A DNA stretch of 64,000 nucleotides from Raillietiella orientalis (Eukaryota). The stretch lies in assembly GCA_036172245.1 (NCBI GenBank), contig JAYWIR010000001.1, positions 11,408,001 through 11,472,000 on the forward strand, given 5' to 3'. Under the pieces are notes generated by a model. That model saw nothing but the letters and a program-made list of their open reading frames with translations, was not told where the DNA came from and did no database searches. Positions 1 to 41,360 of this stretch are shown here, in pieces. Made by a program: the position numbers and the translations under genes. How positions within the stretch are numbered: the first letter of the stretch is position 1; each line of letters starts with the position of its first letter.

Positions 1-249
1 CCAAAGGAGCTGGGGGGTAAGGAGGCAATCCTCTTCCCCTTCATCTTCCTCACCCTCTGCGGTTTTCCTCTTTCCGCGAACCCTGCGCTTCCGTCTGAGC
101 CTGCTTTGGTCTGAGGTGGAAGAAGAAAAAGGGGGAAAATGGCGCCGGCGTTTCCTAACAGAAAAAAAAAAAAAAACTTCGCTTTCTTTTTTTTCTTCTG
201 CCCTTCTGAGCACGTGTGTGTGCGTGCGTGTGTTGGATTGAAATCTAAC

Positions 250-1850
250 GTAGTACCAACCGAATGGTTGTGGCCCAAATATGGCCGTCCCACTTACAGG
301 AACACCGGCGAGAAGGCGAAGACGACGGTGGGGAGGAAAAGGACGCTTCTATCTCGACAGCTGCTGTAGCCCGCGCGTACGGCACACGCGTCCAGATGAT
401 TGCCCTATGCAGAGGAGGCAGCTCGCTGTGCTCCCCGGAAGACACTTCGTAGGTCGCCGCCGAGCAGCTGCAGCGCCCCCCGCAACGGGCGCAGCTTCGG
501 GAGCATTACGCGGGGCATGCACAAGAGCTGGGAGGAACCGCCGGAAGCTCCCGAAGCTCCATGGAGTCCACATCGCTCTTCAAGCTCCCGGGAGATACTC
601 CTGGGGGATGGTGAGCAACGATGAGGTCCCGCGTAAAGAACGTTCGGGTCCGCGGCTTGCGAGGGGAACTCGAAACTATACCGCCGATTAAAGGAAAACC
701 CTTGCCCAAGTCCCAACGACGGCCCGGAGAACGAAGACCCAGCAGCTACCTACGTCTTTTTTCGTCTTCCCAAGAATGCTGGTCAGGAATGTCTGCTGTT
801 CCATGAACGCCACGCGCTCCGCCTGTAGGATAGCAGGGCAGCCTGGAAGTTCCAAAGGCGCAGAAGACCCCACGAACCGGCGAAATCTTCCCGAATGCTG
901 CCATCGGCAGAAAGTCTCCCCCCCCCCTCCTCTGCATAGGGCAATCCTCCGCCCAGTTGTATGACCGCCTACGCTGTCGCCAGAGACCAGGGTTGGGTGC
1001 TCGGTGGAGAGCAGCCGCCGAGCCTCCGGTGAAGCTCAGGCAGACGTCGTCGCTCTTCGCCGCAGCCGGCGGCCGCCCGGCTACGTGCGTAGCGAGGCAG
1101 GGCGTGCGCTTTTTTTTTGCACGAGCTCGCTGATGCACCCAACAGCCCGGGAGGAGGAAGAGGGGAAAGCAAACGCGCATGCCTCTACCGGCATCCTGAC
1201 CGTCGCATTCATTTAAGCGCGCTTGTCAGCATCGATCTGCGCGTGGCGCGAGCTGCTGCTCATCTCACGCAAAAGTGCACAGGATATGAAGGGGGCAGAA
1301 GGGTTCGCAATTGAGCTTCCCAGACAGCGCTCCCGGTTGCATCGCCTGTGGCCCACGAGGTGCCTTCCGGATGTGCATGGCCGCTCCAAAGTCCGAGCAA
1401 CGCAAGTCACCGCCTGTGAAGCGCGTTCCCTTCCTAATGGGCAGAATTTGTCGAAATCCACTCGAGATGGTGGCAGTTGAGACGGATCATGCATCAAGCG
1501 GGGGCGGGCCCCCGATACGGCTGCGGTGGTTTCTTGCGTCCAATGGGGGAGGGTACTTGTACCGTACCAAAGAGTGCCGTCCATCTCGCCACGCTCCCTT
1601 CGCGGTCCATAGTCGAAGAAGGTTCTCTTCCCTTCGGGACGGGGAGGCCGACCAAGAGACCATCGTGGGCTGCTGCGCGCGACGTCTGCGATTCTCGGCG
1701 CCTCCACCACTAAAGGTGAGGCCGAGCGCTTCAGAGCGTGTGGGTTCAGCAACTGCCTCCGCAGCCGCTCAAGAGGCAACCAGCGCTTCTTCGCTGTTCG
1801 TTTCCTCTTTCCCAGCTGCTCCTTTTCCAAGCGATTTTACCCCGTCCTAG
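250..1850. mobile_element. Heavily decayed LINE ORF1 (gag-like) fragments in both orientations
   Basis: GC-rich. Inverted homologous segments at ~396-419 and ~926-949 read ..DCPMQRR (zinc-knuckle tail-like). Minus-strand LRCSDFGAAMHIRKA near 1360-1405 resembles an eroded CX2CX4HX4C. Confidence 0.35.
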
Positions 1851-2449
1851 CTGGCGCTCAGGCATTTTTGCTGCATCAGAGTTGCATTTCCGCTGACGAG
1901 CCGTCCAGCGTGTTCGCACGCGCAGTCCCTCCTCCTACACGGTCGCCATTTTGGTGACCCTGACAGAAACAACCCAGGTACGCGCGGCGACTCTGACACC
2001 TAGCGGCAAAAAAACAAACGATTTGCGCCCCCCTCCCCCTCCCTGCTGCCTCTACTCGCCAAGCCACTCCCTCCCGGGCAGGGCCAAGTGAGACCAGCAA
2101 GCGGATCGGGGAGCTTCCTTTGCACGCGCGCGGGCACGTCTCGCATTCTTCGGCGGTTTGCTCGAGCGGCGGAAGAGCACCGGACAGCGACTGAGAAAGT
2201 AAGAAAGCTGATGTCAGAGCGCGCACACATGCATCACACATCGCATTCTTGTTCTGTGTCCAACGAGACGTGTTCTTCCCCCGCGAGCGTGCGATCGAAG
2301 CGGAGCGCATGTGGAACGACCCCAACACCAAACGCACCCTTCCTAGACAAACCGAACGGGGGGGGGGATGGAGGATTCCCACGGGTGCGTTCGACGGCAT
2401 CCGCCCGCGCGCGTCTTTGAGTCCGTCCTCAAGGGGCGCTCGGCGACCC

Positions 2450-4400
2450 AGCCCTTCTCGCGGAGATCGTTACGTCACGAAGGGCAACTCCGCCCCTGAA
2501 GGGGGGACGCTGCTACGCTATCCGGCGCATCCTCGCGCGGGAAAGGACGAACCCTTGGAGGAAGGCTGCCGCTCAGAGCTCCCGGGAATGGGAAGCTGCT
2601 GCGGAAGGAAAGATGCGAAGAGCGAGCAAGGGTAGGGACAATCTCCTGAGCATGTCCTGCGAGGGATCCGAACAGCTCGAGGAGCGTTGGTCGGTGGCAG
2701 CTCGGCAGGTTCTCCACAGAGGTCTCGGCTCCGGGAACACGTCAATACGCAGGCAAGACGGAAACAGGACGGACAGCACCTGCGCGTCACGCCCATCCCC
2801 GCTCGGTGGCGTCTTTCTCCGCCCTTTTCCTGCCTGCCGGAGGCTGCAAGATTGCGGCTCGAAAGAGGGGACTTTCGGCCCAGCTGTAGACATGACTGGG
2901 CACCGGAGCCCGTTCACCCTAGAAAGAGGCGCGTGGTTGTCCTTCGCCTGCTTCCTTGAAGTGCGAACTACGCATCCCGCAGATCGATCCGTTGCTAGAG
3001 TCCCCATCCTCATCAGGGAGACAGGAAGATCGGACGCCTCCAGAAGAGGGCTGCTGGGGCTGGCTGAGTGTGGTCCGGCAGGAGATGAAGAAAAGAAACT
3101 CGGTCTCCCACCCCACCAACGGCTGGTTTCCCAAACCTCCGCTTCCCAGTCTGCCTCATTCCTGTTCCCCAGCTTCCCTGCTGCTAGTTTACGCGTGATA
3201 AACGTCCCGGAAAAATGGATGTGTTCCCAGTCATTCCTGACGAGGAGGACATCGCCCATCTAATAATGCGCATGCCTCTTCCTCCTTTCTTTCTCTTCCA
3301 CCTCCCTTGTTCCTCCTCCTCCCAACCAAGGACGCAGCCACCCAAGTGCTGAGAACTGCCCCTCTGGAGGATGGGCAAGACTGGCTCCAGGAAAAAGTCT
3401 GTTAAGGAACTCTGAGGTTGCAGCGAAGGTCGCATTCGTTCCCCGCCTCCCTCACAGGGAAGGAACCTCAGGGCCTCCCTCCTTGGTCAGGGGGGGCGAG
3501 CTCTCTCTGCCGACTTTGGGCCTTCAGATATTCCCCGGCCATTAATCCGGGAGGAAATCAGGGTGCGCCCAAGGAAGCATGATAGCAACCTGGAAGACGG
3601 CCATTCCCGCCGAAAAGAGAGCACCTCCTCCTCCCCCATCCGCCTCCATGGAGTGCTCCTCAGGAAGCAGGGAAAGGAAGGACAAGTGACTTCCGGTTGT
3701 CCATGTTGATCCCGCTTTCATTCTTCCCTCTCCCTTCGTCCTTTGGGACGATGACTTCCTCTCCTCCTCGACGCAGTTTCGTCGCATGGAGTCTGCAGCC
3801 ATTCTGGGCGGTCCAACGGAAGGATGCCGGCTCATCTCCGCCCGAGAACGCGCACCCGCTGTCACTTGATGTTCTAAGCTTCCCCTGGGCTCTCCCCCGC
3901 GAGCAACTTCCTCGCATCCTTTCCGGCTATCGGAGCGCGCGGTTGCTCTCGACTACGTGTGCGAGCGGGAAGTGCTAAGCAACGCACCTGGTTCTCTTGA
4001 TCCTTGATTCCTCTTGATCCCCTCCCTCTTGATCCCTCTTGCCGGGATTTGCGTCTCCTTCCTGCCTCTTCCTTCCCTTGTTCGGAGCTCACCTTCGCAG
4101 AGCGCTGCTCCATTAGGAGCTTGTGGATCCTGCCCGGCCTCCTCAAGTTGTTCCATCAATTGGTCCCGCTGCTATCCTGACCTGCTTTTTCTTCGTCGTT
4201 TCGCGTTCCGTGGTTTGCGGCTGAGCGCATGCTTCTTTCCTGCGTCTCCTTTGTTTGCGGACAAACCCAAACTTCACAGAAGCTGCCCAGGCCATCTCCA
4301 GTCGTTGCGCTCCTGCCTTCTTGCACGTCGATTTCTTTCTTTCTTTTTTCTTTTTTTATCTTCCTTGATGCTTCCAGAGCTGCCATAGCCAAGGTTTCGT
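2450..4400 (-). mobile_element. Decayed non-LTR retrotransposon relic (ORF1 end plus APE endonuclease)
   Basis: Minus strand, across frameshifts: DVLLV/QE (~3235-3255, LQET-like), VN..P, MG.D and LRIDVF in APE order; knuckle-like Cys residues at ~3850-3990. Confidence 0.45.
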
Positions 4401-9308: not shown

Positions 9309-9407
9309 CTTTAAAACTGGATCTTTCAACTAGCAATAATCACGGCTCAGTCGCCCTCCTCGCCTATGATACTGCCCGTGCGCAAGGCTTTAAAACTGGA
9401 TCTTTCA
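9309..9407. repeat. 20-bp exact direct repeats flanking a 59-bp GC-richer insert (TSD-like)
   Basis: CTTTAAAACTGGATCTTTCA at 9309-9328 and 9388-9407. Confidence 0.85.
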
Positions 9408-23318: not shown

Positions 23319-26300
23319 GTGAGTCCACTCAAAATTATTTATAAATTGGCGAGGGCAAACGTTGGGTTTGGCGGCACGCGCAACTGCAGGCAAAAGTGTA
23401 CACTGACTTTTGTATTGAACGAAAGCCTGTATGTTGCTACAGGGAGAACGAAATCCATTTCGCCCATGTTTTTTGTATCAATGAAATCCCCATGATTTTG
23501 TGGTTGAGGGAGGAGGGCAGATGTGGAAGTGTCTGAAATTGAAGCGGGTAAAGCACAGATTCAAGTTGGGACACCCCCACCCTTTGATCGGCTTTCTAGG
23601 TTGGAAGCGAGTGCTTCATTTCAGTATATGGGTGCTTTAAGTTGCTTTGCGGAGTTCAGAAATGGTCCTTTTTATCTTGTGGAAAGAACTTCAAGACTGC
23701 TCATTTCGTGGCTATGCATAAGTGTGTGGTGTTTTCGTGATGGCATCGTTTCAGTGTCAGACCATCTTGCTACCATGGTGTTTGAATTTTCGCAGTTTCT
23801 TTGCATTGAACTTCAGGACTGGGGGAAATGCTTGTTAGCCAAGGGCAACGTGGGGTGTCTGCGAGGTTTGCCCAGAAGCTGTCTCCTCCGTTTGGTTCTT
23901 CCTTGCTGCATCTTTGCAACCTTCACATCGTGGCCAGGTTTTGCGCGTTTGGTGTGGCGTGGCTCAACACGGTATCAGACGAGGCTGCAGATTTCGGATT
24001 CTTTCAAGTGTTTCGAATTCTCGTGTTTTCCACATGCCAATTTCTGAGTATGTTTTTCATCCCGGAATCGTGGTGGCTCCCGGAAAAGTTTTGGAAATGC
24101 TCGAACAGCAACATAAGTGTGTTTAAATTCCAAAACCAGGGCGATAGTGTGAACCCGATTGCCTGAATCCCACATCACACATCAAGTGCATTTCCCAGAG
24201 CTTCAAAGTTTCTGGAGCTTGCGGAGCTGGAATTTTTTTTTTCTGTCTCGTGGTCCGTTATTTGAAGTACGTGTTTTACGATATAGGAAATTAGTTTTCA
24301 ATTTCTCCCACTTCTGTTTGAGGCGACGCAGGCAGCAGCGTGTTACCAGAATGCATTATTATTATTATTATTATATTATTATTATAACCATTCAAAAGTT
24401 TTTCGTTTGTTAGCTGCTTGGCTTGTCAGTTAGGTTTGCATCGGAGGATTTTTTCTTCTTGAAGCAAGGGTCCTCTTCCAGTAGCGTTTCCTTCTATTTA
24501 GTTTGTAATGGAAGTTCTTTGTCTTGATGTCGGGAGAGCAGCAGTAAAATTGCCAGAACGAAACATGAAATTTCATCATTTTCATTTTAAAACAGCAGAC
24601 CCCCCCCCCTTCCTTCTTTCGAGAATGACTTTGTAAATGTGCGCCACTTTTTCATGCCTTTTCATTTAGTAAGATCATCGGGAAGTGTCGTAAAAAAAAA
24701 AAAAAAAATCAAGAATGATTTTTGCCGTCCAGTTCGATAAAAAAAAAAAAAATTTTTTTTTTATAGCATTCCTTTTTTCTTACTCTGTTGGCTGGCATGC
24801 TCTGAATTCTTATGATGGGAAAGATTTTGAAAATGATTAATCATGTAATTATTGACCTTTTTTTTTTTTTTGTTGCTGCTGCTGCTTTAAGTGCTGCTGC
24901 CTTCCCTTGGAATATTTTCCAAGGGAAAAAGTGAAGTTTACATTCGGGCGAAAAGAGAAGACATGGATGCGCGCATGAATTCATCTTCTAAGAAACCATG
25001 TAACCAAAACGTTTTATTTCCGTCTGCCAAACCTCTTATCTCGTTGCAGTCTTTTCTGTTTTTGGCCCCGTTGATGTGATTTGAAAACCCAATAGACTGC
25101 AGAAACATTCTGTGGCTCCATTTCTGCTCTCTGCCTTGGGATCTTTGCCGGGTCAACGTTTGTCTTGTTCTATGGCAACTCTTCCTTGCCGCTGGATGTA
25201 CGCCTGAGGAATTGTTTCGTTTGGCAAAACTGGAATGCTGAAATGATTTTCCCTTTACGTTGTGTATAAATTAGCGTCTAATTGCTATATCATTGGAAGG
25301 GTAGCCTTTTCAAGTTCATCTCCATGCTGCAGCGAAAAAAAATGAAAAATAAACTTGGCAGAACGTTAGACGTTATTTCAGCCTGGCATCTTATGGCAAC
25401 TCTTTATGTTGCAAAGAATTCGCCCTGCTGTGGATAAAGCACGAATCGATTACCATGAAGCTACAGCCCTTTTTTTTTCACGCGCGCTCTCTTCTCTCTT
25501 TCGTAGCCTCCTTTCTATCTTCTAGTCTCTCTTCTTATATGCATGCTTGTCCTGATGTTTGTAGCTCTCCCACTTAAATAAGGACACGTGATGAGGGGAA
25601 GAGGTAGGAAAAAGAGGAAAAAGCGAACCGTTCTTAAAATCGGGTTCTGACCTAACCTCATCCCACAGCAGCAGCAGCATCGAAATTTTCCATTTGGATT
25701 CCCATTTTAAATTTTACTCGGTTCCTGTGCTAGGTGACACCCCCCTCCGTAATATTGCTGCATCCGAGCCATTTTCGCGTTAGTTTGTTTATTTATTGCT
25801 TATCATCTCAATGACTGAATCGTTCGTGTAGTACACATTTTACCCTCGTTATTGAAAAGACAAAAAATTTGGTCCAGACAAGAGGCGCATCGAGGCGGGT
25901 ACCGTAGCACCGTTCCCCCTAATAAAGTGCCGTTCATTTCAGTCTGTGCTTCAGTCACTCCTAAGTGTAGCACACAAATCAGGTGGTGCATTGCTGCCGT
26001 GCGATCGTATATTCTGTTTAGTGCATGTATGATGTGTAATTATCTTATCTTAGACAAGTTTAATTTACGATCGATGAACTTTGACCTTTTGTTGTTTTTA
26101 ATTTCAAATATGTGCTTTGTGACTCTGTGGATGAACGGTAATGCAGTGGGAACGGTAGCAATGTGCCCGTGATGTTTCTCTTGGACATGTGAATGTGCGT
26201 CAGAATAATATTTGAACATCTGGTGTTCTTTGGTGTTACCATGAGCACCAACAGTAGCAGCATCCATGTCTTCAGACAAACTCGCGGATTTTAAGAAAGG

Positions 26301-29300
26301 TTCGTGTGTTTCGAAAGCTTTCCCATTAATTTGGTGTGAGAACGAATCCGCACTTCCAGACGTATGTAGTGGTCCGGATTTTTTCTAATCAACAAAGGGT
26401 ACAGTTGCATAGTTTTCAAGATCTTTGTTCCGTGGTTTGTATGCATTGGCTTTAATGATGGTGTGTCATGTAAGTCTTCAAACACGGCGCGTTGGGAAGT
26501 GAAACCAGTCCTTGTGTGTATTTGAAATCATCAGTCAGCGTAATCAAATAGTTCTTTCCACATTAAAGTATGGTCAATTTTAGGCAGCCTGAATTCGAGG
26601 GAGAATGCGGACAATGTGACATCGTGCTCAGTTAAAGATGAAGTTTCCATACCCTCCTCTTTGCCAAGTGATTTTGACGGTATGTGTGAAGTTGACTTTT
26701 ATTGAAGTTGTATTGATGGTAAAATTAGTGCACTGCGTTTCTAATCCGTGCTTTGATCTGTTTAGCCAAAGCTTCGTTTTCCAAAAAAACAAAAAAATAT
26801 TAATAAAAAGTAATGTGGTTCTCGTTAGCTTTATCTGGTAACATATATAGTAAAGCCTTTTTCCCTATTGGACAACTGAGTTTTGTGGAGCACTATTAAA
26901 TACTAAATAAGGAACGCATGAGTTTGATAATATTTTGTAGAATACAGTTATATTGTATCTTGGACATCATTACAGTAAGACGGATAACTTAACCGTGATT
27001 AGAATTTTTTCAAATATTCTATGCGTATGAAACGGATCCATAGTTACTGTTTCTTTTTTCTATTTTGTTTTCATACTATTTTGACTTTTATTTGTTCAGT
27101 TATTTGTTCACCTTTGGTTAAGATGCACCTATGTTTTGGTCCCTAATGGAATAACAGTGTATCTGATGAAAATCTTTGCAACCAGTGGTGATTTCATATG
27201 CCAAAAAAACATCTTTCAGATCCCTCTGTACCACTGTCAGCCCTTTCTTCCCTCGCAGGAAGCTGTTCCTTGCCTTCCCAAGAAACTATGCCAATCATGC
27301 CTGGCGTTTGTCATATTAACAAGCAACCTTCAACACTTGAAGCTCAATACATGCAACAGCAAAGCCAGATCTTTGTATTCACAACAAGTTTAGCTAATAA
27401 AGCTGCAGAGTTTGTTCTTCGAGGACAGTTTCCATCAATCATAGCATTTCATTGTTCTACACCGCAAACTAAAAAATTTTTAGAGGTATGTTACTGCACT
27501 TCGTAAAAATCATAGCATTTTATTGTTTTGTAGAAATATCCTCTGAAAGCAAATCAGTTTAATAGACAGTGTCATGCCCATTGGTTTAATGCATATAACC
27601 ATTTAAAGAATCAAAAAGGTGGAACTATGAAAAATATGCCAAGTCCCTCTGTTGGGATGAGTGCACCATGTCTTTCATCTCCAATAATACCTGAATATGG
27701 TCCAGCTTCTTTGCCAGGATCTCAATGGAACCAGGTAATATTGAAACTGTCCTGTACACCATTACTACATTCTGTTAGGCATGTGATAATATGGGTAATT
27801 TGAATCCCATGATGAATAGTTCTGGTGCCTTAAGACCCATGACTTCTGGTAATATTGCTTCAACTACCAATATCTTAGGAAACGTGGCAACTCCTGGTAA
27901 TAGTCCGATTATGCCCAACTGCTCGGGTGGTAGCCCTCTCGTTGGAGCACCTGGTATTATATTTCATAAAGAATGTAAACACTGTAACAGTTGAATAGCT
28001 TTGGGCAGGTCAGGTATGGGAGGTTCAGCTGCAGCCACTCCTGGTAGTCCAATGATGGTTTCATCGCCCATGATGCCTTGTAATTCAGCTGGTATGCTAG
28101 TCTGAATATCCGAGACTCATTAATACTTGTTACACAGGTACACCAACATCACAGATGATCAGTTCAGTTGGTTCTCCACTCATGGGCAATCCCATGATGA
28201 ATAACTCCAATCAGCTGAGTGGATCTCCAGCTTTGAGTGGTGAGTATGGGTGTGAAATGCTAGTATTGTCTGTATGGTATTCCTTGTTTTGCTCTGTCCT
28301 ATTTTGGTGGCTGAGGTAAGGCAGCTGCTGCTGCTGCTGTCCAGCTGGCCACATGCTGTCTTATTTGCTGCAGATGCCATAAAGATCATAGGTGACTCAA
28401 TTTCAGGTGGCACAAAAGCGGCATACAAATGTGAACACTGCAATGCTGTCTACCGGACCAAGTCCTGGCTTGAAAAACACAGCAAAAAGCACGCAATTGA
28501 GGCAGGTGAGGACAGCAGACACTGCAGCAGTGCCTCCCGCCTTCATTTCCCTGACGTCTGTGTGGTGGCGTGGGTGTGCTCACACAGTACCAAAGACCAT
28601 CCACCATTCAGCTCACCTTGCTTTTAGGGTCAAAGGTTCCTGATGACAATCTGACACCTCAACAACGACAGCATCGAGAAGAGCAACTTGCCACCTTACG
28701 CAAGATGCAGCAAATGCTATTTCCCGAACAGCAGAGTCCTGGCGGCATGATTAGTTCCAATGGCCAGACCATAGTCTCACCAACATCATCCGGAAGTGTC
28801 ATGATGGGGCAGAGTAATATGTTAGTTGGTCCCAACATGGCTGACGGCCAGAAGGTCATCATGCAGTCCAGTATGTTGATGGGTCCGTCTTCCAACAACA
28901 TGAATTCATCTCCTGTAGCAGCACAAGTCGAATGGCATAAATTGCAGCACGAGTTTTATGAAGAACGGCGCAGGAAAACGCCATGTGGTGGACCAATGGG
29001 TAAGACTTTGAAGGGGCGGAGGGAATGATCGATACTTGTAATGCTTTTCATACCTAGGTGACACCATGCCCACCAATGGAATGTTTGGTCGAACCCTACA
29101 GTCATATGCCCAACAAAAGCAACAGCAGATACCTGGTGGCATGCCAATGGGCAACAAGGAACCTAATTTAATGCCTGTCCCATCACCGCAACAAATCCAA
29201 TACCTCAATGCATTTGAAGGACAGGAGCTGACTATTCAAAAACAACCCAACACAAGTCTGCGGGATGCTGATCTCCTCTCACCGACGTGAGTTAAAATTG

Positions 29301-31305
29301 ATTCATTATAATTTCATAACACGCTGTGTGTTGCAGAATTTCTACTGAGAGTAATGCGGGTGGTGAACCCCTAGCATCAACAGGCTTGACAGCACCTCCT
29401 ATTCCTCTAACATCTGCAGAATCAGCTCCTCCAAGATACCCAGGCACCACGCTGCATTCTTCCATTAAATTCCCTAGTCCATCACCCCAAATGCAGCAGC
29501 AAACTGCAACCCTAATGGGAGAGTCCTTGCAGAGACTAGCTAGGGCAGGTACACCTCACCCTCCTGGAATCACAGAAGGAAAATCTTTCCACGGTCCCAG
29601 TCCACAAGCACAGGGCCCGCGAGCTCCAATTATTGACCCTCATATTTCCCGGATCCATGCTCCCAGTCCTCAAGCTGCTCTCATGAATGATATGGGAAAT
29701 CAGCGCTTCCCTGTAAACAGCCCATCTGGTCTAGTAATGGACCCATTGGGACGGTATGCTAACAATGCAAACGTTTTAGTCAGTACAACCCTTCCCATGC
29801 AAAAAATGTCATCTTACTCTGAGTTGTCTCCGTCCAAAATGCCTTTGCTCGAGTGCTCTAATATCCCCATTGGTGTACCCCCGAAGAGCAATGCCAATTG
29901 CGTAAAACTCAATCATTTTGATCCCATTTCATCAATGGCTGATATGACGCAGCAACTGACTACCAATACTCCCATACAGCCGATGGCTTCCAGCTTGCCT
30001 TCATGTGGTGGTGGTGGTGGTGGTGGTGGTGGAGGTGGTGGCGGTGGTAGTGGCGGAAGCAGTGGGAGCAGTGGAGGTGGAGGCAGTAGCAGTGGCTCTG
30101 TGAGCAACTTGCAGATGGTCAATTTCAATAGCAGCATGAATTCCATGCAGAACATGCAACAACAGCAAATGGGTGTGACCACTGGTAGTTCAGCCATGAT
30201 GGGTCAATCAATGGGGAGTATGCATGGTCCTCAGACTGTTAATAACACATATGTGAATGCTACAATGACAATCCAACAAATGAATATCCAGGGAATGCCT
30301 GGTCATGGTCAAGCATATCCTCCCAATATGCTGCCAGGATCTCAGAACATGATTCCTCTTCCTCCATGTTCAAATACTGATCCAAGTGGAAGTTCTGTGA
30401 TTTCAGTGTCTCCAAAGCCTTCTATGGTTCAGTTGATGGGAGGAGGACCGCGAGGAGCCTCACCCAACTTGAATTACGCTCCCAATATGCACTCACAAAG
30501 GATGTTGAGGCCCAATTTTGCCCCTTTCAATAGTGCCAATGTTCAAGTTAAAGCCAGTGCTCCCAACACAATACAGTATTTGCCTGCCCGTGCCCAAAAC
30601 CAAAGTGGGAACCACCGAGATCCCTCCAGTCTAGAGTTTTTACAGCGGTACGCCAACCCCCTCACTAATTTGGATAGCAAAGTACCTACCCATAATCTCC
30701 AATACTTTCCGAATTCCAATCCGTCTACGATTGTTCCTCCTATGGGGAATTCGCAGACCGGAATGTTAGGTGTTGCGGGACATTCTCTCCCGATAAATAA
30801 TTCCATGAGCAACATGAACGGGCCAATGCTAGGGCACGTAAGACCTATGAGTATTGGAATAGGAGCGGCCGTGGGTCCCCGTTGCCAGGGTCCTCCGTCC
30901 GCTTCCATGATACGGGGCGCAAGCCATCCCATGGTGGGTATGTATCCCGGACTCACGAATCCCAACCAGCAGTGTGGTCCGATGAGTGAGACCATGTTCA
31001 TGGCAGGTCCTGGACCCAATCAGATCGTGCCTACCGGTGGTGGCCCAGGCTCGCAGATGTTCATGGCAGGTGCGAAGCCATCCCACATAGGGATCCCAGC
31101 GAATCACGAGTCTCAGCAAATCCTCCCTCCCTTGTGCACAAGCAACTTCAAAGGTTCGACGTTTGTGGGACCTACGACGGCAGATCCAAACTATGCACAG
31201 CAGTTCCACAACTTCCAGCAGCAACTTTATTCTACCAATACTCGCGCGAACCAAATGAACCCTCAATCTTTAGGCGCACCGCAGACATTCTTTGGACCCA
31301 AATAG
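22859..31305 (+). CDS. BCL9: BCL9/Legless homolog (Wnt/beta-catenin transcriptional co-activator), spliced; join(22859..23318,27220..27485,27534..27734,27779..27953,27999..28091,28138..28239,28628..28999,29058..29286,29337..31305), 3867 nt, ~1288 aa
   Basis: HD1 Pygopus-binding motif IFVFTTSLANKAAEFVLRGQFPSIIAFH (27369-27452). HD2 beta-catenin-binding motif DNLTPQQRQHREEQLATLRKMQQMLFPE (28645-28728). HD3 AQVEWHKLQHEFYEERRRK (28921-28977). Arthropod-type blocks KEPNLMPVPSPQQIQYLNAFEGQELTIQKQPNTSL, VQVKASAPNTIQYLP and DPNYAQQFHNFQQQLY. All eight introns are GT-AG with matching phases (1,0,0,1,1,1,1,2). The exon 1 link is the least certain. Confidence 0.93.
27220..27485 (+). CDS. BCL9: BCL9/Legless coding exon 2 (HD1)
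   Basis: Acceptor catctttcag at 27219; LEAQYMQQQSQIFVFTTSLANKAAE...KKFLE; donor GTATGT at 27486. Confidence 0.9.
27534..27734 (+). CDS. BCL9: BCL9/Legless coding exon 3
   Basis: Follows a 48-nt intron; 67 open codons KYPLKANQFNRQ...GSQWNQ; donor GTAATA at 27735. Confidence 0.88.
27779..27953 (+). CDS. BCL9: BCL9/Legless coding exon 4
   Basis: Follows a 44-nt intron ending tctgttag; ACDNMGNLNPMM...GSPLVGAP; phase-1 donor GTATTA at 27954. Confidence 0.82.
27999..28091 (+). CDS. BCL9: BCL9/Legless coding exon 5
   Basis: Follows a 45-nt intron; ALGRSGMGGSAAATPGSPMMVSSPMMPCNSA; 93 nt, phase 1-1; donor GTATGC. Confidence 0.75.
28138..28239 (+). CDS. BCL9: BCL9/Legless coding exon 6
   Basis: Follows a 46-nt intron ending tacacag; GTPTSQMISSVGSPLMGNPMM...SPALS; 102 nt, phase 1-1; donor GTGAGT at 28240. 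Confidence 0.82.
28374..28505 (+). CDS. Candidate alternative (cassette) exon of BCL9/Legless encoding one C2H2 zinc finger
   Basis: Acceptor ttatttgctgcag at 28373 (alternative tttcag at 28406) and donor CAG|GTGAGG at 28506. 132 (or 99) nt, phase 1-1, no stop. Encodes YKCEHCNAVYRTKSWLEKHSKKH (28424-28492). Confidence 0.5.
28628..28999 (+). CDS. BCL9: BCL9/Legless coding exon 7 (HD2 and HD3)
   Basis: Acceptor ttgcttttag at 28627; GSKVPDDNLTPQQRQHREEQLATLRKMQQMLFPE ... EWHKLQHEFYEE; donor GTAAGA at 29000. Confidence 0.93.
29058..29286 (+). CDS. BCL9: BCL9/Legless coding exon 8
   Basis: Follows a 58-nt intron; KEPNLMPVPSPQQIQYLNAFEGQELTIQKQPNTSL; phase-2 donor GTGAGT at 29287. Confidence 0.9.
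29337..31305 (+). CDS. BCL9: BCL9/Legless terminal coding exon 9 (Pro/Gly/Met/Gln-rich, 14-Gly run)
   Basis: Follows a 50-nt intron ending ttgcag; corresponds to ORF 29326..31305; ends QQFHNFQQQLY...FFGPK* (TAG). Confidence 0.93.
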
Positions 31306-31481
31306 TGCAATTGTTACGTTACATTTCGTTCGTCTTCGTGTTAGGTTCTCTCAATTCCGGCTTATGCTCAATCTGATTCTTGTGCCATCGGACCGCCGAA
31401 CGGAGGCGTCGGGGGCTTCACCTCGGACACTTCGTTCCTCTCCTCGTCAGAGCAGTAGTACTTCCCGTGGTCCCAACACAA

Positions 31482-31536
31482 AGTAGTAGCAGTAGCAGCA
31501 GCAGCAGCAGCAGCAGTAGGAGTAGTAGTAGTAGTA
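31482..31536. repeat. (AGT/AGC)n trinucleotide repeat in the presumed BCL9 3' UTR
   Basis: agtagtagcagtagcagcagcagc...agtagtagta. Confidence 0.9.
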
Positions 31537-34500
31537 ACCGAGTTTCTCTTCATCGGACCTCCCCCATTTTTATGTTGTGGTTTTTGCTTCTCTCACAGCT
31601 GGAATCATTCAGTATTTTGCTCAAAGCCAAGCAATAGTTTTTCAGAGCTTATTTTAGATGTGTGACTTTGCTTCTATATATTTGTGTTACTGATATCGAA
31701 CAATATTTATACCAAGATGTTTCCCATATTGAAAAGTTATTTTTGATGGGATTTAAAAGTATTTTAAACCACGAATGGTTTTGTGATAGACAGTATTTAA
31801 GTATGTTAATACGACTAATGATGTAAAGTTTTATTATTTACAGATTTTACATAAATTTTTTAAATAATATACAGCATTTTTTTTTCTTTTTCATTTGCCT
31901 GCTGCTTGTCCCGGAGCAATCATTTGCACACTTGGGTGTATGATAAGATATTGACTCATCGCAAGTTGCGATCCAAAGTGTATAAGTTTCTGTGTATCAA
32001 GTGCTGCGTGCGGTTCCCCGCTGTCTTCTGCGCCAGCTACCGGGGGGGGGGGGAGAGAAGCGTAAGGTGATTATCCTTTCATAAAATGAAACTGGTCGAG
32101 CAAGTAGTTTTTCCGTGTCTATTGATCTGAAGCCCATGCAAAATACCGAAGACGCTCTTGTTTATAAAACGTATCCGATGCGTACACTCGCATGCGTGTA
32201 CATTTGTCTAACCAGCAGTCATCAATAAACCGCTGGTTTATGGTTGTTAATTCTTTTCAGCCTTCTTGCTCCTTTTCCTCTCCCTCTCTCCCTGGAATTA
32301 AAAACAAGAGAGAGGGGGAACACTCCCGTCTGGGGACCCGAGTGTGGCGGAATCAATAGGACATGTATCGGAAGCAGAAGTGTTTGTATTTTCCGCCATC
32401 AGGCTGCTGCGAGTGCAGTCTGCGAAGGCTCTTAGGAGGTTTTCCTCTTCGCTGTGCCTTCTGCGGAGCAGCATTTCGGTCTTATGCCGATGTGCTGCCT
32501 TTCGTCATTCGCCTTGCGGCCGGTTTCGTAAATCCAGTGAAACTTTCGTGCAACATGCAGCAGTTGGCACTCTTGTGACCACCCTCCGCGCATTTCGAAG
32601 AAGAGAACTACCATCTGTGATCACGGAAGCTCCTTTGCCCTCGGCGGTTTTCGCGGGCCAGTTTGGCGCCGTCTTGTTCCTAGCTAACTGATCCTGACCC
32701 TTTTAGTCATGTAGTAGTTGTTGGCTAAGAATCCCTGCGCAGGAGGAGATCAGGACGGTAGTGAGGTGGTCGCAGGGGTATTTCCTTTGGTCCATGCATA
32801 CCGAAAGTGTTTAAAGAGTCGTCTTATGTGTTGGTTCCTGCCAAGTCTCGTGGGAACGGGGGAAGGGATCGTATCGAGGGAACGGGGTTTTCTTGGCGCA
32901 GTCTTAGTCTGAAGGTGAGGAATCGGATACCTGAAGGCACGCTTGTAGAGTCTGTTATTTCGGAGAAGCATAGAGTGTAGCAGTTATTTCCGACGTGCGG
33001 AGGACTCTCTAAAACGTATGTAGGAACGTGAAAAAGTTCCCTCTGAAACGTTAGTGACGTTTGACTATTAAAGTAAGCAAGTGGTTGAGATCTTGCAAAC
33101 TGATGTCTGTTCCCTCCAGCGCAGCAGTTCATCCATCATCTACTCCGTAACTACACCGCCGAGCATGCGTAGACAAAAATTTTGGAAGTGGGGATAAAAG
33201 GTATCGGAAGTGGCGGAAGGGAGCCACCTTCAATTAGGTGTTTGAAATTTTAAAGAAGTTTTCCTTCGAGAGGAAGGTATTTGACATGTGAAAGGAAAAA
33301 AGCAAAGCGTTAGCCACTGCGGGCATGTGAAATGGCTGTGGCAGCCATGCGTTCGTCGGCTGGGCGCTCATTTCCAAGGGAACGAACTACGAGTACTCTG
33401 CTCACCGTTGACAAGTGTTCTTGCGTGTCGAGTGTGTTGGCCAACAAGACGTGTGCGCGGCCGTCGACAGCGCCAAGGCAGGGGGGGGGGGAAATGAAAA
33501 AGAGGAGATACGGCACACAGGTACTTGAAAGTACTCTACAATGCCACCTCGATGGTGACATTTGGAACTTCCCGAATGATAGGTTCGATTCTCCAGGGCA
33601 TTTGTGCATCCGTTGCTATGCAACCCTTCGTCAGATTATGTTGAATTTCGGGTGGTTAATGAGTGAAGAACTTATCTGGTGCACAAGTCTTTCGTCAGGT
33701 TTGTAGACTTTTAAAATAGGCTACGCACCTTTAGGAAGCTTCGTGCCCTACCGATTGTTTGCACATCACCTAAAGAAGGGGTGCGCACAGCGCAATGATA
33801 TTTCTAGAACGCCGGAGTCATCCGAACCAAGCTGTGCGAGAAATTACAAAAATGCCCATTCTTTTTCTGATTCTCTGTAATTTTCACTGTTTGTAAATAT
33901 CTGAGGGGACGCCCTCGACGCAGTCCAAGCGGGCATCCCGGGCAAACACTCTCCGTAGCCAAAATCTTACGCTGACAGGCTACAGCGAACAGCTTCTCAC
34001 GAGACGAGCGCAATGATGGGCCACTGAGTGCAGGGGAGAAAAGAAAACGTGATCCTGCCTCCCGCCCTGAGTGAGTTCGGGCTGATTTCTTCTTTGCTTT
34101 GTCTTTTGCAGGAGATCGATAGGATTGCATCCTTCAAAAACAATGACGCTCGATCTTTCATTCAGGATGGATCGAGAGCCGGATGAAATCTCACCTCCCA
34201 TCTCTTCATTCTGAATCCCAAGTGGATGCGCAAGCCCCGCACGCAAAGACGACACCTGAAACGACGCTGTTACTCGAGTGCGCCTTCATCCGTTCCACTC
34301 AGTGGATCGGTAGCGTTCCGTATAAGTGGATTAGTGGAATTAGCAATCGAAGTTAACTGGATGCACTTCGAAGGAAGTGACAGACAACTTCGATTCCTTT
34401 TGTTACAGCGCATTCGTGGCCTTCGGTGCAAAGAGGCGACCATAAGACGTCTTTCCTCAGGACATCCTCGGGAGCGTTCGCTCCCACGACGAAACCTTTC

Positions 34501-35699: not shown

Positions 35700-38345
35700 T
35701 GTGGAAGGCCATTCTGCTGCTGGAGACGGAAGCAGCGGCGCCTACGGTTTGAAGGAAGCAACGTGAAGCATTGGGAGGGGCAAAACGCCTCTCGGCTGAG
35801 ACGTGGCCGACTTGCCGCATGGCCTGGTGGCATTCGAACCGTCTGACTTGGGCGGATCCCGTGCATCCTCGTCAGCGAAATCTCGCACAGACCTATCCTT
35901 TGGGCAGCGAGGGAGCTCGGTCTTGGCCCATTAACCTTGCCGGCTGCGTCGAGGAAAAGGAAATCTTCAGCTCTTCTTGTGCGTGGATCGTGCGCTGCTT
36001 GTGCGGCCACAGAAACTCCTTGGTTGGGTTGGAACTTCCCGATTCTTGCGAGAGGAAAGTCTTTACCGGGCAGGGCATCTTCTTGTCCCGTCCATCCTCT
36101 TCGTTTCCAGCGGGAGGTTCCTTCCTCCACAGGCTGTGTGACGTATCCCGCGCCCACAATGTGCCTGGGCGTGGGGTTGTCGTTGAGGAGCTTCTCCGCT
36201 CCTTCGTTCAGGAAGCGGAGAGCTTTCTCAGATCACTGACCTTAGCCGGGCGGGTCAGCACCGCCCATCACTGCGGGAGTGCGGTCAGGTGCATTTCGGC
36301 GGCATGTGTTTGATGGGCATTTCGCCCTATGTGGTGCGGACCCACGGGGTGCCTCTCGAACGAAGACTCCAGGAAGGGTGGTCCGGACGGCATTGTGAAA
36401 CCGAACCGTGCGCCGGGAGCCACGCAAGTGACCATCGGCTAGAGGTGGCGGGACTCACTGCTCAAGAAGCGACTCCAGCCGACGCGGAACTGCGGGCGTG
36501 CACAGCGAACAGGCACCAACTCCCATGCTCCGCTGTCGGGTCGGTCGCAGTGGATTCGCGCGGGAAGGCGAAGGCGCCCACGCGTGGGGGTGGGACGAGA
36601 AGCTCTTCCCTGCCTCGTGCCTGCGAGCGGGAGCGACGCATGCGCGCTCTCTTGCGACGCCGCTTCCCTTCCTCCCCTCCCCACCCTCACGCAGCCCCTG
36701 CTACAAGATCCTCTGTCGGCGGTGGACCACTCGTGCGGGTCCCTGCTCATCCCCCTTCGGGTTATATGGGCACATAAATCGCGGCTCTTCAGGAGGACAT
36801 GGAGCGCCGGCGGTCTCCAAGAACTGCGGTGAAGGCTGCCTTCAGCGCTCCTGCACCTCGAGGACGCCACCAAAGACTCGGCTAGCAGCCACTTCCTCCT
36901 GGAAGTGCCTGCACCGTCGTCCTGCCATCGTCGAGAGGAAGACCCAGGACCTCCTGAGGGAAGTTGTGATTCCGACTCGAAGACTTCTCTGCTCTGCCTG
37001 GGAAGGTGGACTGGGCCTCCTTACGCTGGAGAGCATGACGCGTCTGCTCCAGCTCAAAAGACTCTCCCTTTGAGTCCAAGCTGCGGGCCACACCTTGGTG
37101 CACTCTGGCACCAATCGTTGCCTAGCGAGCGACCGGTTGCGAGGGACTGACTACGGTCGTTGTGGCCACCGAGCGAAGTCGGATACATCTTGGCTCCCAG
37201 CTCCGACAAATGGTTGTCCTGGTCCGATGGAAACCCTGGATCTTCTGCCTTCCCGAGAACGAGACTGCCTGCCTGCGGGAGTCCGTTTCGGCGTGGCGCA
37301 AAAATCAACGGCACGAGCGAGGGAGCAGAGTTCATCTGCCTGCACACCAGCAGATGCGCTCGTATGCTGTTGAGGGAGATCCTGGACAACAGGAATCTGC
37401 TTGGGGCGTCGTTCATCCCCTTGCCTTAGTGCTGCTCTCCCTGAGAGGAACAAGGGACAGCGAGCGACCATCGATAAGATAGGAGGTGACGTGCACTATC
37501 GAAAATAGAAGAAAACATCTAAATATGCGGGAGCTAGCGGACGCTGCTACCACGAGTGTCCCTTTAAAAGGGCTGCTATGCTGGGGAGGGCTGCTAAGAA
37601 CTCCTCCGGAGGTGGTGAAGTGGCCCCCAGTGTGTCGAAACAGTGCAACCCACTCCCTTAAGTGGCAGTTGTCGGCGATCCTTCTATTGCATTGGGACCT
37701 CCCGTGCAATGCCCGCTGACATCATTGGACCCGGGGGAAGAGGTGATAGCAACTGCGGCAGGTGCGGCGAAAGAGAGAGTCTCTCCTAAACCTGCTCGTG
37801 GATTGTGTGTCCTCCGCTCCCTATGGTAACGCTTTGACGCGTTCCTGAGGATTCCCGAAGGCAACTCAAGAGCTCTTCTGAAGCGCCTCTTCCAGCGCGA
37901 TGCCATTACGACGGCCGCATCCCCAGCAGCACTTTGCTGCCTGCGCGGCGGGACCATGGCTGCATGGAGCAAAGCTAGAGGAGGAGGCCAGGACGACAAG
38001 GACGACATCCATTTTGCTGTCGTCTTCATGAGGATGGCGTCGGCCTCATTTGGGTATCGTAAAACAGGAACTTGCCGACATCCTTACAAGGATGCAGAGG
38101 ACGCCCTCCAGCATCCGGTGATCGCTTCCCGAATCCTCCCAACTTTTTTTTGTATATATTTTTTTGTTTCATTTTTCTGTTTTGTTTGTCCCTCTTCCCT
38201 CTGCTGCCCAAGCCGAACCTCTCTGGCCTACGTGCCGGTACTCGGCAGGTTGCCTTGATTACATTTGTAACTTGACAGAACCAAGCGTCCTGCCACTGAC
38301 CGGTGTTTATTTTTTATATAAATAAACGCCCCGGTGCAACCGGCT
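35700..38345 (+). mobile_element. Decayed L1/Tx1-like LINE, copy A (internally deleted)
   Basis: IAALQED (APE LQET-like, 36778-36798); RT region KINGTSEGAEF (~37300); zf-RVT-like ESLLNLLVDC (~37777); C-terminus LADILTRMQ...*; family 3' end at 38200-38343. The 5' boundary is uncertain. Confidence 0.6.
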
Positions 38346-38399
38346 CTCAAACCAAGGGCCTGCTGCGGCGATTCTTCGCGCGAGAACTCTTTGCTGGCG

Positions 38400-41360
38400 C
38401 GGCGATGACGACGGTAAACGGTTGCATCCCGCCATGCGCTGGAGTCTCGGGAGGCGAAGGGAGATCAGAAGCCTCCTGCAGGAGGACCATCCTCGCCTGG
38501 AGGAGGAATTCGGGCGCCGGTGCTGAGCAAGAAGGAGCAGTTCCTTCCAAGGAACCCCTGTTACCAGGCTCCCTTCATTTCTTTCTTCTCCTCTTCCCCT
38601 TCCCCTCCCGCTCGGCAACCGACCCGCGTGTCATTGAAGCTCCCTCGTGGACATCTCTTCGCTGCTTTTGTCTCGGAAGTTGCGTTCCCGGCGACCTCGT
38701 GTGGCTTTTTTTTTTTTTTTTTGCCTGCCAGAACGCCCGGGGTGACCCTGTGAAGACGGGGGGATGCCGGGCTGACGTTGGAGAGGACGGAGCTGCAGCT
38801 CCGCTCCGGCGGATTCGCCCTGATGGCGACGGCCTGGAACCGGAAGTGACGTCTCCCCACTCGCCCTCATCCTTCGGTGGTCGATCGGTCGCGAGGGTTT
38901 CGCGTCGCCGTATCCTGGCAACTGGAGATGGGTGGGGATGCTCTTGGGCTTTTCCCTCGGAGCAGGTTCTCCCCGCCGGAAGGCAACGAGAGGAGCTCAT
39001 CCTGCCATACTCTGAAATCCCACCCTCGGCGGCGGGAGTACGCGGGCGGCTTCGTGGCGCGCCCGGCCAGCGTCAGTCCGGAAGACCTCGTCCCAGTTCG
39101 GCAGGACATCAGTGCGAGGGTAGACCCCGCCACTCCTTCGGCTGCAGCTCTGCCTTCTCCACGGGAAGACGGTTGCGACCGCCCACCTACGAGGTGTTCC
39201 TGCGCGATCGCACGAATGGAGAGGCTCCCGGGCGGATACTGGTCTTCGTGTCTCCACCCAGAACCGGGCAGCCCCTCCCCTGTGCCTGGACATTTCCGTG
39301 CTCCCCCTCGGGAGGCAGCGCGACACGGCGCTCCTCCTGGGGTCTCCCTGGAATGGGCGCCGCCGGTACCCACATCGCGACGGCGGATCGTCTTCCCGGA
39401 GTTGATGGGCTCTGGGGCCACCGTCAGCGGCTGCGGGAGCGGCTGGATCCTGTTCTCCTGCTGCATCTGGCGGAGCACCAGCTAACTGCTGCGCGTAATC
39501 GCTTCCTCGCTCGCGAGGGGTCCCTCGCCCGCCTCCGCTGTGGCGACCTTGGCTCAGGGTCCGCATTCTCGCTGCTCGCCCAGAGCTGCGTCAGTGGCGG
39601 CGTCAAGAAGCCATCTGCACCGCCGCAACCTTCCCAACGAGAGAGGCTTGCCGGCGACCCTATCGGAGGACCAGCTCGAGAGAGGAGGAGCCACCCAACG
39701 CGGTCCTCGCTGGAAACCGCGTGACTCCGGTCTCCGCGCGTGTGGGTTCTAATCCCTCCTGGGGAATAATCGACGCCAAGAAAGGGTACAGGACGTCATG
39801 GGTTTCGAATCCCCACCCCGCAAGATGACGCTGGTCGGCCTACAGGCTTCGGGATGCCCGTTGACATGGTAGGAATTGGAGGTTGATCTTTCGGGTTCTT
39901 CCAGGACACAAAGGAGCCCTTCAGGATTCCCCCCTTCTTGAATTGAAAAGTGACACGCACCCTCTGATGGTGTGGACAGTCTTTAAAGACCTTAGTGCCC
40001 CTGAAAGAATGCAAGCGGTTCTTCAGCACTTGGCGAACCAAAAAGAAGAAGAAAAAGGCTGGAAGGAAAGCAGCGGAGAAATCCCAAAGGATTTCCGTCA
40101 TCTCAGGTAGCGAGAGTCCTGGATTCTGCTCTCACCAGGGAGGGAAGGGTCACCAAGGATCAGACGCTCCTGGAGCCCTTGCGATCACAGTCCATCTGCG
40201 CAAAGCTTTCGACTGCGTCAATCCGGAATTCCTTCTGGAACTCCTGGAACGCATGGGATTCCCGGCCGTCTTCCTGGCCTATCTGCGCTCCTGCTGGCAC
40301 AACGCGCTCATCAATATTTGTTTCAGAGGTTGGCACGCGTATGACGTGCCTGTTCGCCACGGTGTAAGGCAGGGTGCACCCCCTGTCGTGCTGAGAGCAC
40401 ACAGGGAGACTCTAGCAACCCTACCGAGCTCTCACCTGGGTACACCCGCCGTGTACAGACGATCTTCTGCTGCTCCTCCTCGGGTCCACCCGGCTTCTGC
40501 ACTCGAGCGCTTCTTCGAGCTGCTACGCCACGGGACGGGACCTTGAGGTGAACAGGACGAAGTCGGCTATAGTGCCTGTCGATGCGACGTGAAACTCGGA
40601 AAGTGACGGCCGCTGAGACCCCGAGTGTCCCATCCCACGGAATTGTGCGCTGAAGAGAGCTGCTCGGCATTCCTACGAAGGGCTCCCTGAATTCTGGAAC
40701 AATGCAAACCTCCCCCTCGAGTAACGGGAGTCACGTTGCTGGCATCGCATGGGGGAATCCCCTGCAAAGCGCGTCTTCACCACTGAACACGATGGAGGGA
40801 GAGTCCTGAGTGGGACAGGTGCGGGAAGAAGGGGACCCTCCTGCACCTGCTGTTGGACCGTACTACCCTTCTACGCCTTTGGGATCGCCTCGCACGATCC
40901 TAGGAATTCGCCGGGCGGCCCCAGGGGCATTTTCGGACGCCTTTTTGCGCGCGGTACCACATTGCTGCTAGCCACTTCCCTCGTAGTGCTCTTGCTGCTG
41001 TCTCTGCGGAATCACCACGGCCTGGAACGCGGGAAGAAGAGGCCGAGATGTCAGAGACGCCATTCACTGGTCAGGAATCTTCCTGAGGACAGCCTCGATC
41101 CTGAACAGGATGCCGGAGATGTCTGGCAGTGCACCGTGATCCCTTCTTTGAATCCCGCTCTCCCCGGGTATGAATCCCCCTCCCCCGTTTTGTTTGTTTA
41201 ATTTTTGTTTTTGTTTCCCCTTCCCCCACGCTGACGAAGCACTTGCCCGTTGGTCTGCGTACCGGTCCTCGGCAGGTTCATTGCGCGTGGTAGAACCGTT
41301 GGTTCTACCACAACATATTTTTTTTAATACCCAAGTAATAAATGCCTCGCCATAACCGGT
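38400..41360 (+). mobile_element. Decayed L1/Tx1-like LINE ORF2 (APE-RT-zinc finger), copy B
   Basis: APE: MTTVNG (38405), LLQEDH (~38475), MGGD (~38928), SARVD (~39112). RT: LRKAFDCV (KAFD 40202-40213) and HGVRQGAP (40358-40381). zf: TLLHLLLD..LW (~40835). Family 3' end at 41230-41359. Many frameshifts. Confidence 0.82.

Follow-up and report, generated by a model that had tools for sequence, protein, structure and literature searches.

A candidate phase 1-1 zinc-finger exon in the intron preceding the HD2 exon of a BCL9/Legless homologue

BCL9 and Legless are described as disordered adaptors whose short homology domains bridge Pygopus, beta-catenin, ChiLS and TLE (PMC5352222, in the available part of the article). 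A homologue of these proteins is encoded on the forward strand of the segment of the Raillietiella orientalis genome analysed here, a stretch of 64,000 nucleotides (nt) referred to below as the window (contig JAYWIR010000001.1, positions 11,408,001 to 11,472,000). The intron that precedes the exon of the beta-catenin-binding homology domain 2 (HD2) of this gene contains a candidate exon coding for a single zinc finger of the C2H2 type, in which the ligands are two cysteines and two histidines. Symmetrical exons located in introns of the same phase constitute the classical pattern of exon shuffling and tend to be skipped or included with the frame preserved, according to the accessible portion of PMC6335736. 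The candidate exon is of this symmetrical kind, being phase 1-1 in a phase-1 intron. The reading favored here, with a confidence evenly balanced between acceptance and doubt, is a lineage-specific gain of the finger exon by a process of the exon-shuffling type, the exon being included in some of the transcripts.

The candidate exon and its splice signals

The candidate exon translates as DAIKIIGDSISGGTKAAYKCEHCNAVYRTKSWLEKHSKKHAIEAG and may start after either of two in-phase acceptor AGs, found by direct reading at 28372-73 and 28405-06. Translation of the joined exons gives one stop, the terminal one, in each of the three possible products, which comprise 1130 codons including the stop when the exon is skipped, 1174 when it is included in its 132-nt form and 1163 with the 99-nt form; both inclusion forms are phase 1-1 and stop-free. 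A preliminary description of this locus had given the coordinates of the AGs, the donor, the intron and both versions of the exon, all of which were found correct by direct reading. It had also stated that both versions preserve the frame without a stop and that a complete Y-x-C-x2-C-x3-Y-x5-L-x2-H-x3-H finger is encoded; the joined translation and the pattern seen in the translated exon agree with these statements.

The finger, CEHCNAVYRTKSWLEKHSKKH, combines the C-x2-4-C-x12-H-x3-5-H spacing of the ligands with the aromatic and leucine core, displaying a tyrosine two residues before the first cysteine, a second tyrosine four residues after the second cysteine and a leucine three residues before the first histidine. 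The Pfam zf-C2H2 hidden Markov model (HMM) is matched from end to end on the 45-residue peptide, with a score of 25.5 bits (E 1.6e-5) for a gathering score of 25.2. The peptide is predicted to adopt the beta-beta-alpha arrangement of a hairpin and a helix: the single-sequence AlphaFold2 model comprises a strand at residues 17-20, a bridge at 26-27 and a helix at 30-44, with a mean predicted local distance difference test (pLDDT) of 77.8 and values of 84-85 over residues 21-40. The best matches of the finger in the PDB, by sequence as well as by fold, are C2H2 fingers. The top Foldseek rows correspond to Kaiso and ZNF fingers (TMq 0.69), none of them reaching E <= 0.001 for this very small domain. 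According to the usual helix numbering, the contact positions -1, 2, 3 and 6 of the finger are occupied by T, S, W and K.

In shuffled 64-kb sequence, the bare C-x2-4-C-x12-H-x3-5-H spacing is encountered about 0.57 times per window over all six frames, and spacing alone is therefore weak evidence. The other three occurrences of this pattern in the window are overlapping histidine-rich antisense readings of a poly-Gly stretch. Agreement with the HMM and with the core residues extends well past the spacing, and the finger is not a product of chance.

The splice signals surrounding the finger were evaluated by shuffling its flanks 20,000 times, the finger being taken as given. In 0.5% of the shuffles, there was an in-phase donor agreeing with the consensus at 8 of 9 positions or more and separated from the finger by no stop; an acceptor both usable and in phase was present in 24%, and the two sites occurred together in 0.1%. 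The donor actually present, CAG/GTGAGG (the slash marks the exon boundary), lies in phase 13 nt past the last histidine. Sites of this quality number 15 on the forward strand of the window, and the donor is the best in the 3' half of the gene, where the others score 5-7 of 9 when scored by hand. Both acceptors are pyrimidine-rich. Because in-phase splice sites wrap the finger at a level far above the shuffle rate, the finger unit is an exon, or was one until recently, and not a piece taken at random from a contiguous finger array, a complementary DNA (cDNA) or the reading frame of a transposable element (TE). Compared with a TE or cDNA fragment, a captured genomic exon is favored by these statistics. 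The open frame that extends over the whole intron (123 codons) is not significant, both flanks being stop-free in 6.3% of 50,000 shuffles.

Additional splice-like signals were observed in the large intron. At 28290-28321, a pyrimidine tract is followed by GAG/GTAAGG, which places acceptor-like and donor-like sites back to back; the donor-like site, at 28316, agrees with 7 of 9 consensus positions and is out of phase with the finger. This motif resembles a recursive splice site or, since the G+C content climbs from about 40% to 65% just past it, could correspond to the 5' boundary of the insert. On the other side of the candidate exon, the frame of the finger remains open through 28506-28627 and ends at a TAG overlapping the 3' splice site. 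If this segment were retained, a form of Legless containing HD1 and the finger but devoid of HD2, HD3 and the C-terminus would be predicted.

The host gene and the age of its intron

An arthropod homologue of BCL9/Legless is represented by its 3' two-thirds on the forward strand, from about 27.2 to 31.3 kb; its features are collected in Table 1. The HD2 exon matches the Pfam BCL9 family over profile positions 1-37 of 39 (E 2.6e-20, cut-off 25), the match covering residues 7-43 of the translation of this exon. Comparison with 93 homologues by TBLASTN shows the blocks in the order HD1, HD2, HD3 and C-terminus, which is canonical for BCL9; with insect and spider homologues, the respective spans are 27315-27485, 28621-28989, 29069-29287 and 30280-31302. 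The name HD3 is taken from PMC5352222, of which an extract was available. The assignment of the gene to BCL9/Legless in the preliminary description is thus borne out by the Pfam match of HD2 and by the TBLASTN matches of the remaining blocks.

Table 1. Features of the BCL9/Legless homologue and of its candidate zinc-finger exon (positions in the window)
Feature	Position	Strand	Basis
BCL9/Legless exon with HD1 (Pygopus-binding homology domain)	27220..27485	+	TBLASTN, 57-81% identity at 27315-27485; splice sites; frame check
BCL9/Legless exon	27534-27734	+	splice sites and joined translation
BCL9/Legless exon	27779-27953	+	splice sites and joined translation
BCL9/Legless exon	28014-28091	+	splice sites and joined translation
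Exon preceding the large intron, phase 1 end (...ALS + g)	28138..28239	+	splice sites and joined translation
Phase-1 intron before HD2, 388 nt, G+C content 0.50	28240..28627	+	splice sites and joined translation
Candidate phase 1-1 zinc-finger exon, 132 nt (alternative in-phase acceptor: 28407-28505, 99 nt)	28374..28505	+	sequence, translation, frame check
C2H2 finger core YKCEHCNAVYRTKSWLEKHSKKH	28424..28492	+	Pfam PF00096, 25.5 bits; predicted fold
Donor CAG/GTGAGG, 8/9 consensus positions, GT at 28506-07	28503..28511	+	consensus scoring
Exon with HD2 (beta-catenin-binding), phase 1 start	28628..28999	+	Pfam BCL9 PF11502, 72.4 bits; 93 homologues
Exon with HD3	29058..29286	+	TBLASTN, 58-92% identity
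Last exon, conserved C-terminus, stop 31303-31305	29337..31305	+	TBLASTN; joined translation

The only frame-consistent model of the gene contains introns of 48, 44, 60, 46, 388, 58 and 50 nt, in this order. The length of the large intron was therefore correct as first described, and the range originally given for the others (44-58 nt) is corrected to 44-60 nt. The large intron is 6-9 times as long as its six neighbors and contains 50% G+C, versus 29-43% in the short introns; the parts located on either side of the candidate exon contain 49% and 56%. From the last histidine of the finger to the start of the Pfam HD2 match, the distance is 11 residues.

Homologues possessing the HD2 exon were retrieved as 93 proteins, with a best identity of 54% within that exon. 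None of the 93 matches the pattern of two cysteines and two histidines (CCHH), and the precomputed Pfam column lists PF11502 only for all of them. A scan of metagenomes yielded 15 additional BCL9 loci, none of which contains the finger (best TBLASTN E 0.69); the CCHH matches encountered there are non-finger strings located on the opposite strand of two loci, L012 and L013. According to the preliminary description, no finger is known in the family, which holds for both collections. Among the listed titles and abstract openings of the literature on legless/BCL9 evolution, none describes a finger in the protein.

An acceptor at the identical phase-1 position, immediately before G-V-K-[VI]-P-D-E-N-L, is present in 8 of the 15 metagenome loci (L001-L005 and L009-L011). 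The whole intron is visible in L009, L010 and L011, where it measures 59, 76 and 75 nt, respectively, and is free of any insert. The remaining seven loci read straight through this position, being cDNA-like or having no intron there. The phase-1 intron before HD2 is thus old and normally small and, because its counterparts in L009-L011 are short and insert-free, the finger-bearing DNA is a derived insertion of the present lineage. The earlier proposal that the insert is lineage-specific is supported by the same loci. In a FastTree analysis of 30 full-length proteins, which gives a rough placement, the window protein belongs neither to the clade of winged insects (support 97) nor to that of arachnids (support 100); the best identity to it in this set is 50% over 769 columns.

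Several observations were made on the same loci and on the surrounding sequence. Four of the metagenome loci (L007, L008, L012 and L013) are uninterrupted at the conserved intron position, two of them (L008 and L013) displaying the HD2, HD3 and C-terminal matches on one contig; all four have the appearance of aquatic-arthropod BCL9 sequences, either transcript-derived or poor in introns. In the last exon of the window gene, a long Gly/Ser run is encoded at 29990-30080 (+), with 12 G followed by SGGSSGSSGGGGSSSGS. Microsatellites of the (GCT)n/(CAG)n type are located at 28321-28338, within the large intron, and at 31488-31519, just past the stop codon.

The window contains 276 reading frames of at least 90 amino acids, of which 120 (14 and 106) were submitted to Pfam, about 150 frames in the G+C-rich blocks lying outside the scan; no Pfam match was found outside the gene in these 120 of 276 long frames. 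Blocks of 55-65% G+C at 1-4000 and 34000-58000 flank the gene region, which contains 33-48%. Many long open frames arise in these blocks, for instance one of 474 amino acids at 38300-39724, and the 14 longest are without Pfam match. Only five small repeats were detected upon comparison of the window with itself. The premise of a genome with tiny introns proved too strong; short introns are local to the 3' half of the gene. An Rfam match to the U4 spliceosomal RNA was obtained at 9318-9389 (-), with 49.9 bits (gathering score 46, E 3.4e-8). Only 72 nt are covered, for a stated model range of 1-138, and the match may represent a shortened or degenerate U4 copy.

Origin of the insert and rival explanations

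A word-index search revealed no close homologue of the finger: the seven candidates among longer proteins were not significant and none was found among those of 24-79 amino acids. An exhaustive phmmer search with the 123-residue intron frame against 1.84 billion representatives returned 64 matches at E <= 0.001, all of them multi-finger proteins with about 29-45% identity, whose scores are summed over several fingers. Scanning contigs with the same frame gave 308 pattern matches in metagenomes, 14 in viruses and 205 in prokaryotes, none of which was confirmed. The ESM Atlas contributed generic single-finger clusters only, with a recognition below the usual level. The nearest relatives of the finger are arthropod multi-finger proteins. 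The ZAD-type protein XP_033245729.1 of Drosophila miranda is 46% identical over the finger, and units of XP_076061278.1 from the mantis shrimp Oratosquilla oratoria agree with the exon at 16 of 32 residues, the SISGG lead-in among them. These similarities point to a host zinc-finger gene as the putative source. The preliminary description had envisaged the exonisation of a TE or of a gene fragment: the gene fragment is consistent with relatives of host type, and the TE finds neither a domain, nor a copy in the window, nor convincing terminal repeats.

The mantis-shrimp protein is itself of unusual construction. Its residues ~1320-1790 form tandem units of 53 residues, each containing one C2H2 finger and an N-Q-S-I-S-G-G-S-F lead-in, and this array of spaced fingers is the nearest look-alike of the lead-in of the exon.

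The favored reading, that of a gained and at least partly used exon, can be summarized as follows. About 330 nt of DNA richer in G+C would have entered the old phase-1 intron upstream of the HD2 exon in this lineage, the insert being a genomic piece with one finger exon and its own acceptor and donor. Inclusion of the exon would split the 388-nt intron into segments of 134 (or 167) and 122 nt. The unit is in sense orientation and phase-compatible, is located in a transcribed intron and has the best donor of the region, and its splicing would replace one intron of unusual length by two smaller ones; on these grounds, we infer that at least some transcripts include it. The encoded Legless protein would then contain a folded zinc module of the beta-beta-alpha type shortly before HD2, in the otherwise disordered and poorly conserved linker between HD1 and HD2. 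The zinc module in Legless, the selection acting on the finger exon and its function are presumed. For a lone predicted finger lacking the usual linker, the role of a module contacting protein, RNA or DNA seems more plausible than that of a sequence-specific DNA reader. Any effect of the finger on the Wnt enhanceosome is pure conjecture. A stronger version, with a finger domesticated beside the beta-catenin-binding helix, constitutive or regulated inclusion, purifying selection and a nucleic-acid- or protein-docking role, is considered unlikely.

A number of points weigh against a gained and used exon. The finger is seen in none of the 93 proteins and none of the 15 loci; these are all distant relatives, and absence from distant relatives shows lineage specificity, not non-function. 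The source gene was not found, the best identities amounting to 36-50%. The HMM match, proposed as a check in the preliminary description, is marginal: the gathering score is exceeded on the 45-residue peptide and is not reached on the whole 123-residue intron frame (22.5 bits). The two introns resulting from inclusion (134 and 122 nt, 49-56% G+C) would be unlike the other introns of the gene. Codon-usage log-odds, taken at face value, also speak slightly against coding use (-0.30 per codon in the finger exon versus +0.2 to +0.95 in real exons); this result was set aside because the measure was trained on BCL9 exons and mirrors their composition, rich in Pro, Met, Ser, Gly and Gln, rather than general coding potential. 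Moreover, the exon was picked for its frame compatibility, and the scanning of many windows will produce passive fragments of similar appearance. Finally, the splice-site statistics cannot separate a used exon from a passive captured one, as a captured exon keeps its native splice sites whether it is used or not.

This last point leads to the most serious rival, in which the same insertion from a zinc-finger gene took place but the exon is essentially always skipped and is intact only because it is recent. Such a passive exon is a distinct possibility, entertained with some reserve. It agrees with the lack of conservation among the 93 proteins and 15 loci, and the G+C-rich flanks, unlike the local introns, are as expected for newly arrived foreign DNA; native splice sites that come with the fragment explain the shuffle statistics equally well. 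In the frames scanned, the remainder of the window is poor in genes and does not suggest a streamlined genome in which insertions need selection to persist. A passive exon, however, needs neither sense orientation nor a phase 1-1 fit, which by our own estimate coincide in ~5-10% of random captures. Its donor, which scores above the constitutive donors of the gene and is located in a short intron, would also be hard for the splicing machinery to ignore; intron-definition splicing is the basis for expecting a strong donor in a short intron to be used.

A different provenance, from a fragment of a TE or of a retro-copied cDNA in which a finger is fortuitously encoded, would account for the abnormal length of the intron and could be reconciled with a weak inverted repeat that brackets the exon (28324-28342 and 28510-28528; 19 nt, 79% complementary), but one arm of this repeat is the (GCT)n microsatellite. 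Pfam detects zf-C2H2 models only and no TE domain, no second copy of the insert exists within the 64-kb window, and the viral, metagenome and prokaryote contig scans contain no relatives. The open frame across the flanks, not significant in the 50,000 shuffles (6%), lends no help to this explanation, and an in-phase acceptor and near-consensus donor placed tightly around one finger would be unexpected (p ~0.001), so that such an origin is judged improbable. Less credible still, and by a wide measure doubtful, is a chance resemblance, or a large intron due to an intronic RNA gene, a structured RNA or an assembly error. The frequency of the bare CCHH spacing (~0.57 per 64 kb over six frames) would make a chance match conceivable, but the full HMM match with its aromatic and leucine core lies far past spacing. 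Rfam finds nothing in 26000-32000, the intron folds no better than its shuffles (z 0.26), and the sequence reads through cleanly without N. Chance and artefact are largely refuted by the HMM match, the splice statistics, the Rfam null and the fold z of 0.26.

Significance and comparison with known systems

Should the favored reading be true, the BCL9 family would acquire a new architecture, with a folded zinc module at a distance of 11 residues from HD2, and the gene would provide a natural experiment on the tolerance of the HD1-HD2 linker. In the stronger version, the locus would also represent a rare and datable gain of an intracellular domain via classical phase 1-1 exon shuffling. Whatever its function, it offers a clean candidate case of recent exon shuffling, in which an old and normally tiny phase-1 intron now contains a complete phase 1-1 domain exon with its own splice sites. 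If the exon is unused, intact and frame-compatible pseudo-exons exist, which matters for the annotation of genes.

Compared with BCL9, BCL9L and Drosophila Legless (PF11502), the window gene is alike in HD1, HD2, HD3 and the C-terminus and in their canonical order, and differs by the finger unit, since no examined member of the family has a zinc finger. The finger resembles classical C2H2 fingers of the Kruppel/TFIIIA type (PF00096) in its Y-x-C-x2-C-x3-Y-x5-L-x2-H-x3-H pattern and in its predicted hairpin and helix, and it shares with the 53-residue units of the mantis shrimp both the lead-in and the core, SISGG-x-C-E-x-C-N-A...KS-L-x-HS. In contrast to the classical C2H2 arrays, it is solitary, resides in a disordered adaptor rather than in a transcription factor and is 36-50% identical to known fingers. 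TGEKP is the linker motif of classical C2H2 fingers; direct reading of the window finger reveals no linker of this type. With respect to phase 1-1 exon shuffling as formulated by Patthy, the classical cases of which are mostly extracellular modules, the use of the exon at this locus is a prediction only, and the likeness lies in a domain-sized phase 1-1 exon located within a pre-existing phase-1 intron. If real, the case would be that of a domain added to a member of the BCL9 family by a known evolutionary route.

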